DNA from: a virus
Strand: one strand, 5' to 3'
DNA length: 32,928 nucleotides
Virus genome (UHGV): UHGV-0143082
This document shows positions 4,060-22,709 of the stretch, one piece after another; position 1 is the stretch's first letter, and each line of letters begins with the position of its first letter. The position numbers and the translations under genes are program-made. The notes under the pieces are model-generated. The model did no database searches. It had not been told where the DNA came from and saw nothing but the letters and a program-made list of their open reading frames with translations.

Positions 4060-4130
4060 GTTGGTTTTTCTCCAAGGATTTACCGACAACCGAAGCCCTG
4101 ACTGTTACCGCAGTTGGGGCTTCAACTTTT
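4060..4130 (+). ncRNA. Candidate sar-like antisense RNA covering the ant ribosome-binding site
   Basis: Extended -10 TGcTATACT at 4045-4053 on +; predicted start about 4060; hairpin 4092-4123 (gaagccc/gggcttc) followed by U-rich tract; arrangement mirrors P22 sar. Confidence 0.3.
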
Positions 4131-21930: not shown

Positions 21931-22650
21931 GTCTTACCCCCAATAAGGGGATTTGCTCTATTTAATTAGGAATAAGGTCGATTACTGATAGAACAAATCC
22001 AGGCTACTGTGTTTAGTAATCAGATTTGTTCGTGACCGATATGCACGGGCAAAACGGCAGGAGGTTGTTAGCGCAGCCTCTTGCCACCCGCTTTCACGAA
22101 GGTCATGTGTAGAAGGCCGCAGCATAACTATCACTGATGAATTCAGGATAGCCAGTGGCTACGGCTCAGTTTGGATTGTGGCGACCGGTGCTGATCTCCG
22201 GTTTGCTGCAACTGCCTACAGCGGGCTACGTGGCCACACCGAATCCAGCGAAAGATTCTTGCCCTTACACATCAGCCTGTGCATTCACCACAACTGAAAG
22301 AGCACTTGCGGAGTCGAACCGCCTTGGCTTCTAGAACTTTCGCATATAGCTAATCGCTAGTCTCCGTCACCAGTAATGCTCTTTCCGTTGTGTGCCCATT
22401 ATTAATCACACCGGGCCAGTGCGCCGAATTTGTTTACAAGGAGTCGGAAGACCTTGCTGACTTACAGGCTATTACGCCGCCATCAGAACAACATCATCGT
22501 TTGCATTTATCTTTGTGGTCAGTTTCTAAAAAACCGCAAAGTCGCCAACTCTGACGAAAACTATCGTTGTGCTGCCACAACGATAAGAGCACTCGGTGCA
22601 TTTAAGCCAAGCCCCATAAGGGAGAATGCTCTTACCTGTTACACAGATAT

Positions 22651-22709
22651 AAAAAATCCCGAAACCGTTATGCAGGCTCTAACTATTACCTGCGAACTGT
22701 TTCGGGATT
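22651..22709 (-). terminator. tR' late terminator
   Basis: aatcccgaaac...gtttcgggatt stem followed by TTTTTT on the minus strand, same as lambda tR'. Confidence 0.7.

Follow-up and report, generated by a model that had tools for sequence, protein, structure and literature searches.

What fills the interval between the late terminator tR' and gene S of the virus genome UHGV-0143082, where an otherwise lambda-type late region is interrupted by sequence unlike lambda? An earlier note on this stretch of DNA (32,928 nucleotides, nt; hereafter the window), made from its letters alone, had described repeats and long hairpins there and had pointed to the tRNAs or toxin morons that other lambdoid phages carry at this place. 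The observation is real and the insert does specify a structured RNA, but neither a tRNA nor a toxin moron is present. As judged from comparative sequence analysis, the insert carries a derivative of transfer-messenger RNA (tmRNA) that lacks the tRNA-like domain (TLD), is armed with a segment antisense to the tmRNA of the host, belongs to a widespread phage RNA family, and is flanked by lambda-type hairpin cassettes. The main feature had been overlooked: on the minus strand, a tmRNA-like resume codon, tag reading frame and pseudoknots at 22526-22394, preceded by the antisense arm at 22563-22527.

A widespread phage RNA family

The core of the element (about 22565-22398) was matched in 733 of 50,697 phage records (blastn at distant sensitivity), which answers the nucleotide search proposed earlier, and none of the matching records annotates it as RNA. 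They include Kuttervirus and other Ackermannviridae (Det7, PhiSH19, Menlow), Felixounavirus (EC6 and many others), N4-like 72-kb phages (Bp4, KP8, PGN829.1), 46-48-kb siphoviruses of E. coli, Salmonella, and Klebsiella (swi2, HC6, MK54, Akira), HK620 and HK633, and the P1-like plasmid prophage SJ46. Erwinia phage Y2 (Chaseviridae) also carries the element, with the tag ANDNEMRAAA. Of 5426 complete E. coli genomes, 452 also have the core, at 493 places in all, of which 264 are on plasmids, and a scan of IMG/VR with a 24-base pattern returned at least 120 stretches of DNA, for an estimated number of chance matches far below one. Copies from unrelated phage families, virulent as well as temperate, are 72-93% identical. 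The element lies within or beside tRNA gene clusters in virulent phages, and a readable sigma-70-like promoter (TTGACA-17-TAnnnT) is found directly upstream of it in swi2 and EC6.

The tags, T-loops and hairpin interiors were counted in 125 fetched loci, the terminal stems in 121 loci, and the structure counts given below refer to a 50-sequence alignment (A3), with 500 column shuffles and slid 3' partners as controls. As far as such comparison reaches, the core with its terminal hairpin (22563-22394, extending to 22288, minus strand) is shown to be one copy of a widespread, unannotated phage RNA family, and the family is shown to be derived from tmRNA. No earlier account of the family turned up in Rfam 15, in the tmRNA database papers, or in the literature, nor did the literature yield such tags, a message-domain-only phage tmRNA, or an antisense RNA to tmRNA, subscription journals being mostly outside these searches.

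The tag reading frame

The RNA reads AUAAAU-GCA AAC GAU GAU GUU GUU CUG AUG GCG GCG UAA, in which an A/U-rich context precedes the resume codon GCA. The corresponding tag of E. coli tmRNA is ANDENYALAA. All 125 loci have a frame of ten codons of the form AN[DE]x x[FYVM][LRK]x[AV]A that is followed by TAA, TAG or TGA. The 31 distinct nucleotide versions of the tag have positional entropies of 6.27, 5.13, and 9.99, with the third codon position the most variable, and synonymous differences make up 25% of the codon differences in this frame compared with 2% and 12% in the two others. Read from these patterns, the tag frame is one that evolves as a decoded frame. The element thus has the resume codon, the short open reading frame (ORF) with a hydrophobic and alanine-containing C-terminus, and the in-frame stop of a tmRNA. 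The linker upstream of the resume codon has 22 nt, and its equivalent in E. coli tmRNA, from U68 to G90 of the resume codon, has 21. Small proteins were also considered, namely plus-strand ORFs of 54 and 112 residues and the MQT.. peptides of an alternative AUG-initiated +1 frame. They were rejected because there are indels of 1, 5, and 10 nt, the +1 frame varies in length, and the helices compensate.

Helices and pseudoknots

The proposed structure is 90.2% paired against 82.7% in the column shuffles, none of which reaches the observed value (0/500). Cells with double changes number 166, compared with 56 in the shuffles, and slid 3' partners are at most 43% paired. The end of the ORF and its stop codon are enclosed by a stem resembling helix 5 (H5) of tmRNA, and two pseudoknots follow instead of the usual three of bacterial tmRNA. 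The hairpin of pseudoknot A is 99.2% paired, with double changes in 23, 17, and 10 sequences at its varying pairs, and its loop helix is 99% paired with double changes in 16, 8, and 2. For the hairpin of pseudoknot B the corresponding values are 99.7% and 15 and 4 sequences. The partner of its loop sits after the invariant AUUAAUAA, and the loop helix exists in six compensating versions (GCCC:GGGC, GCCCUGA:UCAGGGC, UCCCUGA:UCAGGGA, GGCGGGAG:CUCCCGCC, AUCC:GGAU, and GCCCAC:GUGGGC). RNAalifold, run blind, recovered both pseudoknot hairpins and nothing in the first 120 columns, which hold the arm and the ORF. Pseudoknot B is followed within 16 nt by the start of a stem of 12 bp or more in 113 of the 121 loci, and these stems have 79 distinct sequences. 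The interior of this terminal hairpin is hypervariable, some interiors being simple loops and others reaching about 110 nt, with at least 39 unrelated families.

Predicted pairing of the arm with host tmRNA

The arm consists of three blocks that are complementary to consecutive parts of E. coli tmRNA: 22563-22553 to nt 106-96 (tag codons 3-6), 22549-22540 to nt 95-86 (the region of the resume codon), and 22540-22527 to nt 81-68 (the 3' strand of pseudoknot 1, PK1). The target, nt 68-106, therefore comprises the 3' strand of PK1, the linker, the resume codon, and tag codons 1-6. The E. coli ssrA codons GAC GAA AAC UA are matched, as an exact reverse complement, by the near-invariant leader UAGUUUUCGU. 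When the leader was aligned by Smith-Waterman with reverse-complemented E. coli tmRNA, a single collinear match was obtained at nt 68-106, with z=7.3 for the window and 4-9 for the other lineages. In eight of the 14 lineages (the window, swi2, Det7, EC6, L008, L009, L033, and L107) not one of 300 dinucleotide shuffles reaches the score, and in the sense orientation the arm was never significant in the lineages of this test. The lineages keep different sub-blocks, most being without CUAUUU, which EC6, L103, and L042 retain while they are without others. The N4-like variants of the arm deviate toward host complementarity.

A base complementary to the host is found in 72-82% of the 50 sequences at nt 68-81 (48% at G74, counting G·U), in 82-92% at nt 87-91, which include G90 and C91 of the resume codon, and in 74-100% at nt 95-105. 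The coverage is zero at nt 60-67 and 108-112 and 1/50 at nt 107, so that the profile has sharp edges at 68 and 106; nt 68 is the first base 3' of PK1 stem 1. In 50 of 50 sequences the arm forms a stronger duplex with host nt 60-112 than with the equivalent segment of its own RNA (mean -27.8 versus -16.1 kcal/mol), and full-length cofolding yields a net -12 to -19 kcal/mol compared with -3 to -9 for a shuffled arm in five of six lineages. At the level of single bases, UUUGCGG of the arm is perfectly complementary to the host's CCGCAAA, and pairing with its partner in the phage RNA, CCACAAA, includes a C.A mismatch in 42 of the 43 sequences. In the sense half, similarity of the phage RNA to E. 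coli tmRNA is not significant (z 0-2) and is limited to GCAAACGA. Therefore, it is the arm and not the remainder that stays matched to the host. The predicted pairing has the extended and conserved complementarity to a defined target that is expected of a trans-acting antisense RNA.

The target stretch is near-invariant in about 40 of 50 ssrA genes recovered from Enterobacterales and Pasteurellaceae. Hosts with divergent tag regions of tmRNA are Yersinia (ANDSQYESAALAA), Photorhabdus, Pasteurellaceae, Vibrio, and Pseudomonas. As a side observation, Salmonella enterica strain s1 (L134) has no ssrA within 1.2 kb downstream of smpB and an oppositely oriented gene instead, in contrast to about 40 other Enterobacterales loci, where ssrA lies downstream of smpB.

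The tRNA-like domain is missing

ARAGORN detected neither a tRNA nor a tmRNA in the window, Rfam at gathering score returned for the whole window only sar RNA, located elsewhere, and no Rfam tRNA was found between 21800 and 23000 even at E<=10. A tRNA or tmRNA gene at the locus was rejected on these grounds. The covariance-model search that had been suggested earlier was thus negative, and only in a formal sense does this make the insert the backbone variant without an RNA signature that had been named as the alternative, since the comparative analysis reveals a real structured RNA. The earlier note was right about the structured features, a T-arm of tRNA type, and a locus at which lambdoid phages keep RNA genes. 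At relaxed thresholds, 22526-22472 matches the tag region of the tmRNA_permuted model with 26.3 bits (E=0.004; threshold 47), 22525-22423 matches beta_tmRNA with 17.2 bits (threshold 84), and the T-arm at 22322-22308 matches 15 nt of the tmRNA 3' end with 8.8 bits (E=0.47; threshold 47), all on the minus strand. Sub-threshold Rfam matches to tag regions of tmRNA families were also obtained in other phages.

This T-arm-like sequence, GCGGTTCGACTCCGC, reads GCGG-UUCGACU-CCGC, and a T-loop motif downstream of the element is found in only 38 of the 125 loci. The stem beside it (GAGCAUU/AGUGCUC) has G3-C70 and not the G3:U70 of tmRNA, the duplex continues beyond it, and UUUC follows in place of CCA. 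On these counts the element fails the defining test of a tmRNA, whether made of one piece or two. There is, by its sequence, no chargeable TLD, and the element is hence not a tmRNA. The upstream cassette (22636-22575) has neither the T-arm nor the CCA that the acceptor piece of a two-piece tmRNA would have. Over the 125 loci ARAGORN made only two tmRNA calls, a standard one in swi2 and a permuted one in L099 that spans three tRNA genes; the former is spurious, as it makes use of a tRNA-Met nearby.

Comparison with known RNAs

The phage RNA resembles bacterial tmRNA (SsrA; RF00023, clan CL00001) in the resume codon GCA after an A/U-rich context, in a ten-codon tag of the AND.. type that ends in alanine with its stop codon inside an H5-like stem, and in H-type pseudoknots followed by a long helix. 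It differs in having no acceptor stem that joins the 5' and 3' ends, no G3:U70, and no CCA, and in the antisense arm that replaces the 5' half of the TLD and PK1. In the two-piece tmRNAs of alpha-proteobacteria, cyanobacteria, and some beta-proteobacteria (RF04321 and others) the coding piece works only when paired to an acceptor piece, and the best Rfam match of the window is to the tag region of the permuted model. However, both pieces of the known two-piece tmRNAs derive from one gene and pair via the acceptor stem and helix 2, with the acceptor piece, including CCA, upstream. Here, the partner would be the complete tmRNA of the host, paired via its message region. In stand-alone copies of the element, transcription appears to begin from a promoter immediately 5' of the arm.

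Phage-borne derivatives of tmRNA are known. Full tmRNAs are encoded by Bxz1-type mycobacteriophages and Bacillus phage G, and mycobacteriophage DS6A has a tmRNA-like RNA that consists of the TLD only and is reported to inhibit tmRNA (PMC4131195, PMC11915505). The tmRNA database papers list only these forms. The present family represents the converse partial form, a message domain without TLD but with an antisense arm, and, unlike the DS6A RNA, is found in phages of Enterobacterales and not listed in these papers. The pipeline of the tmRNA database discards sequences without a CCA tail, which would explain the absence of the family from tmRNA databases.

Lambdoid prophages also encode antisense RNAs of another class, for example DicF and the anti-sRNAs (antagonists of small RNAs, sRNAs) AgvB and AsxR of enterohaemorrhagic E. 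coli prophages, which act on Hfq-dependent sRNA or mRNA targets through short seeds. They share with the element the small size, the phage origin, the general region, and base pairing with host RNAs. None of them is known to act on tmRNA or to have a tag ORF and pseudoknots.

Proposed mechanism and alternative explanations

We consider it possible, with a probability of about 45%, that this conserved tmRNA-derived RNA anneals with its antisense arm to host tmRNA and blocks or re-templates the tagging by the host. Being downstream of pR' and tR', the insert would be co-transcribed with the late genes. Transcription would be driven by pR' through the insert toward S and would need read-through of tR' by Q-modified polymerase, while in virulent phages the RNA would come from the element's own promoter. 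Late in infection, when the phage RNA would be abundant, its arm would pair with the linker and ORF of host tmRNA, both single-stranded, and would invade PK1 stem 2. The resume codon and the first tag codons of the host would then be locked in a duplex that starts right 3' of PK1 stem 1. In the minimal version, this would be a plain antisense blockade of host tagging. In a more speculative version, the two RNAs would act as a hybrid two-piece tmRNA: the alanyl-TLD of the host would, together with SmpB, resume translation on the phage ORF, and rescued proteins would receive AANDDVVLMAA instead of AANDENYALAA. We favour such a hybrid because the ORF varies as a decoded frame would, the TLD is missing, and the resume codon lies 22 nt from the junction (21 in the host). 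Nevertheless, that the phage RNA acts as the coding half and host tmRNA as the acceptor half, with the host template displaced and the phage tag appended, must be regarded as rather doubtful.

Several points weigh against pairing with host tmRNA or against its proposed consequences. The transcript ends are inferred. The arm of the Felixounavirus EC6 has no net cofolding advantage over shuffled arms, and the z of the arm-only RNAduplex energies is only about -3, because the sequences are U-rich and A-rich. The invariance of the target among hosts leaves no covariation between arm and target to read, and scans of viral contigs for arms of the Aeromonas/Salmonella, Yersinia, and Pseudomonas types gave 4, 3, and 31 matches, which fall in coding sequence at chance level. 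A hairpin resembling a terminator overlaps the arm in the window. If the RNA arose by inverted duplication of a captured piece of ssrA, its complementarity could be a relic of that origin. Moreover, with an interrupted duplex of about 35 bp next to the decoding path, the ribosome might be stalled and not redirected, and the switch of a ribosome to a template that is held only by base pairing 5' of the resume codon would be unprecedented.

Such a switch would not be needed if the RNA were a pure inhibitor or decoy, which pairs with host tmRNA and, through its tmRNA-like body, may also titrate SmpB, S1 or RNase R. It would then only shut down tagging or rescue by the host, and its own ORF would never be decoded. 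All evidence on the antisense arm applies to this explanation as well, and the DS6A RNA, reported to inhibit tmRNA in E. coli, is a precedent. However, it leaves unexplained why the frame has exactly ten codons, an in-frame stop, and a degron-like C-terminus, why its variation is wobble-biased and rich in synonymous changes, and why the resume context and its spacing to the junction are preserved. We regard it as unlikely.

The arm might instead belong to an intramolecular fold, for example a PK1-like one, of a stand-alone RNA that sequesters proteins, is a substrate for processing or stabilises the late or tRNA transcript. A possible internal stem, CUUUGCGG:CCACAAAG (31-38:55-62 of A3), is 82.6% paired, and the element always closes with a long hairpin and often resides among tRNAs that require processing. 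The same stem has few compensatory changes, contains the systematic C.A mismatch, and was not predicted by RNAalifold, which found no structure in the arm at all. The N4-like variants shift toward the host and not toward the internal partner, and in every sequence of the alignment the arm pairs worse with its own RNA than with that of the host. A native PK1 in the conserved 5' region was set aside in view of the covariation counts and of the better alignment of this segment as the antisense of host tmRNA, and a stand-alone function of this kind seems decidedly improbable.

Could the hairpin at 22392-22288 become a TLD after processing, so that the element is an autonomous though unconventional tmRNA? 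As in a TLD, the T-arm adjoins the 3' strand of a long closing stem, downstream T-loop motifs recur in the minority of loci given above, and EC6-type copies are followed immediately by a tRNA-like gene with G3:U70 and ACCA. This is nonetheless very unlikely given the G3-C70 pair, the lack of CCA, and the duplex that runs past the acceptor position in the window, the hypervariable interiors of the hairpin, some of them simple loops, and the rejection by ARAGORN and Rfam. In addition, the message domain is 5' of both acceptor strands, and cleavage by RNase P would sever it. Finally, non-functional mosaic debris, i.e. decayed tRNA or tmRNA fragments and recombination boundary sequences after tR', might be suspected from the mosaic locus with its lambda-shared flanking stems as cassette borders, the 'boundary sequence' annotated nearby in CUS-3, and the scores below the Rfam gathering thresholds, but is scarcely credible in view of the identity kept across unrelated phage families, compensatory changes in four helices, an ORF intact in all loci, and apparent own promoters in virulent phages.

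Hairpin cassettes and the relation to lambda

The features described earlier had been given in plus-strand coordinates; they are real, and all of them read sensibly on the minus strand. The repeat tool recovered the repeated motif in both orientations and the inverted pair, which there spans 16 nt and not 20 (22289-22304 / 22377-22392, 94% complementary). It also recovered a third copy at 22575-22593, which is a direct repeat of 22288-22306 (84%) and inverted to 22377-22392 (88%), and a fourth, partial copy at 22624-22634 that had escaped notice. A perfect hairpin is indeed present, with 10 bp (22562-22571 / 22576-22585) instead of the 9 first counted. The relation to lambda had been sketched roughly correctly, although the non-lambda part amounts to about 420 nt and not 560, and lambda sequence resumes 250 bp before S and not 200. 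Taken alone, the short repeats are modest compared with chance; chance is excluded because the element is conserved in hundreds of phages.

On the minus strand the four copies follow each other from 5' to 3' as a to d (Table 1). Copy a resembles c and copy b resembles d, and in the fold the pairings a:b and c:d form two long hairpins. The alignment to lambda continues through tR' to 22624, copy a included, returns at 22306-22282 with copy d, and resumes permanently at 22180. Lambda has a single hairpin right after tR', made of copies a and d with an interior of 39 nt. In the window, about 317 nt (22623-22307) replace this interior, and a further 100 nt or so (22281-22181) replace the next lambda segment. 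The late-leader hairpin of lambda (about 44790-44870) has the same stems (CACAACAGGUAAGAGCAUU / AGUGCUCUUUCCGUUGUG) as copies a and d. It is one hairpin without a tmRNA-like element, whereas the window has two cassettes with the element between them.

By sequence, the GTGCTCTTTC-GTTGTG repeats are the conserved stems of hairpin cassettes and not copies of one functional motif. The stems are near-identical across loci (GGUAAGAGCAUU / AGUGCUCUUUCC, extended by CACAAC / GUUGUG) and enclose at least 39 unrelated families of interiors (lambda, L125 about 990-1070; loci L001-L124). Such cassettes flank the tmRNA-like element in tandem on both sides and are also found in lambda. They could serve as sites of processing, as borders for recombination or as a collection of separate small RNAs. 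Interior X of the first cassette (22623-22595, UCCCUUAUGGGGCUUGGCUUAAAUGCACC) recurs in 20 of the 125 loci, each time upstream of the element, and two Felixounavirus contigs (L090, L099) have a related interior in the hairpin that follows the element. In blastn-short comparisons, other complementarity to tmRNA in the interiors was limited to short matches.

The perfect hairpin appears, from its sequence, to be a collapsed form of the GUUGUGCUG...CAGCACAAC pairing of lambda. With the adjoining UUUU (22586-22561, minus strand) this 10-11-bp hairpin scores as an intrinsic terminator, which overlaps the first bases of the antisense arm, and it might gate the Q-independent amount of downstream RNA.

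Between the second cassette and the resumption of lambda lies a tRNA-shaped remnant (22293-22176) that was called neither by ARAGORN nor by Rfam. It contains a conserved hairpin GCACA-GGCUGA-UGUGU (22282-22267) and a degenerate T-arm ACCGG-AGAUCAGCA-CCGGU (22202-22184), at whose place L076, L080, and L098 have a canonical GGTTCGATTCC T-loop followed by CGCCACA-A-CCC or -CAC. Two sense matches to tmRNA in this part are possibly due to chance: the 9-mer CTGGATTCG (= CUGGAUUCG) at 22248-22240, equal to nt 11-19 and an analogue of the D-loop (E=0.76), and the 7-mer GGCUGAU at 22277-22271, equal to nt 3-9 (E=11), both on the minus strand.

Genomic setting and neighbouring genes

The source phage is a P22-like (Lederbergvirus-type) phage of E. 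coli with E212, CUS-3, and Kapi1 as best matches. Its Q-pR'-tR'-S-R region is of the lambda type and on the minus strand, the strand of late transcription (Table 1). The sar RNA noted above (RF00262; 97 bits, E=5e-20) at 4060-4127 on the plus strand is the antisense regulator of ant in the P22 immI region, and the phage thus carries a P22-type immI module.

Table 1. Coordinates of the features in the window, in 5' to 3' order of the minus strand; the RNA features are predictions
Feature	Position	Strand	Details	Basis
Q	23544-22921	-		gene list, lambda alignment
pR' late promoter	22878-22850	-	TTGACT-17-TAAATT; identical in lambda	promoter scan
tR' hairpin and U run	22709-22649	-	inverted repeat 22655-22669 / 22695-22709; identical in lambda	
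Hairpin cassette 1	22575-22636	-	a 22636-22624 (lambda-shared), interior X, b 22594-22575	repeats, fold
Perfect 10-bp hairpin	22562-22585	-	UAUCGUUGUG-GCAG-CACAACGAUA; with UUUU matches the terminator consensus	repeat tool
Antisense arm	22527-22563	-	three blocks	blastn-short, Smith-Waterman, coverage profile, duplex and cofold energies
Linker	22505-22526	-	GAAACUGACCACAAAGAUAAAU, ending in the resume context AUAAAU	alignment A3, Rfam tag-region alignments
Tag frame	22472-22504	-	GCA AAC GAT GAT GTT GTT CTG ATG GCG GCG TAA, ANDDVVLMAA-stop	sub-threshold Rfam
H5-like stem	22457-22486	-	outer CUGA:UCAG	outer helix 91.7% paired, 4/4 pairs compensated
Pseudoknot A	22424-22456	-	hairpin 22456-22437; loop CCGA (22447-22444) : UCGG (22427-22424)	
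Pseudoknot B	22394-22423	-	hairpin 22423-22407; loop GCCC (22416-22413) : GGGC (22397-22394)	
Terminal long hairpin, cassette 2	22288-22392	-	c 22392-22375, d 22306-22288 (lambda-shared)	fold, -39 kcal/mol
Interior of cassette 2	22374-22308	-	interior Y 22374-22323, then T-arm-like GCGGUUCGACUCCGC 22322-22308	
tRNA-shaped remnant	22176-22293	-	acceptor-like UGUGGUG:CGCCACA	read from sequence
S	21930-21607	-		gene list, lambda alignment

Two observations concern the surroundings of the element in virulent phages. In swi2 (L001 2611-3102) a gene for an HNH homing endonuclease is located about 0.8 kb downstream of the element and the tRNA-Met gene, which hints at the RNA cluster being a hotspot for mobile insertions. 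In EC6 (L004, about 1664-1745) the element is followed directly by an unusual tRNA-like gene that ARAGORN overlooked and that is also present in L019, L023, L028, L052, L069, L072, L109, and L120. It has the acceptor CGGGGCG:CGCCUCG with G3:U70 (alanine identity), a normal T-arm, ACCA, and a covarying anticodon-like arm with the loop CUUCUAA, and it has no D-arm. Relatives of these Felixounaviruses have an ordinary tRNA-Arg(UCU) at the same position.

Implications

The tmRNA-SmpB system is the main system of ribosome rescue in bacteria and affects the growth of lambda-P22 hybrid phages and of Mu. A phage factor directed against the tmRNA template was not described in the sources searched, which mostly did not extend to subscription journals. 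The descriptive part alone adds a new and well-supported structured RNA family that is missing from Rfam and the tmRNA databases. Its carriers include therapy-relevant Felixounavirus, Kuttervirus, and Klebsiella phages as well as prophages of E. coli O26. If the RNA indeed blocks or rewrites the tag, the family would explain an unannotated gap in many phage genomes, offer a natural example of template exchange in trans-translation, and provide a tool for programmable tagging. In either case this would be a new layer of conflict between phage and host, and the hybrid two-piece tmRNA, if it exists, would amount to a viral take-over of ribosome rescue and of tagging for protein quality control that would be widespread in the phages of Enterobacterales.

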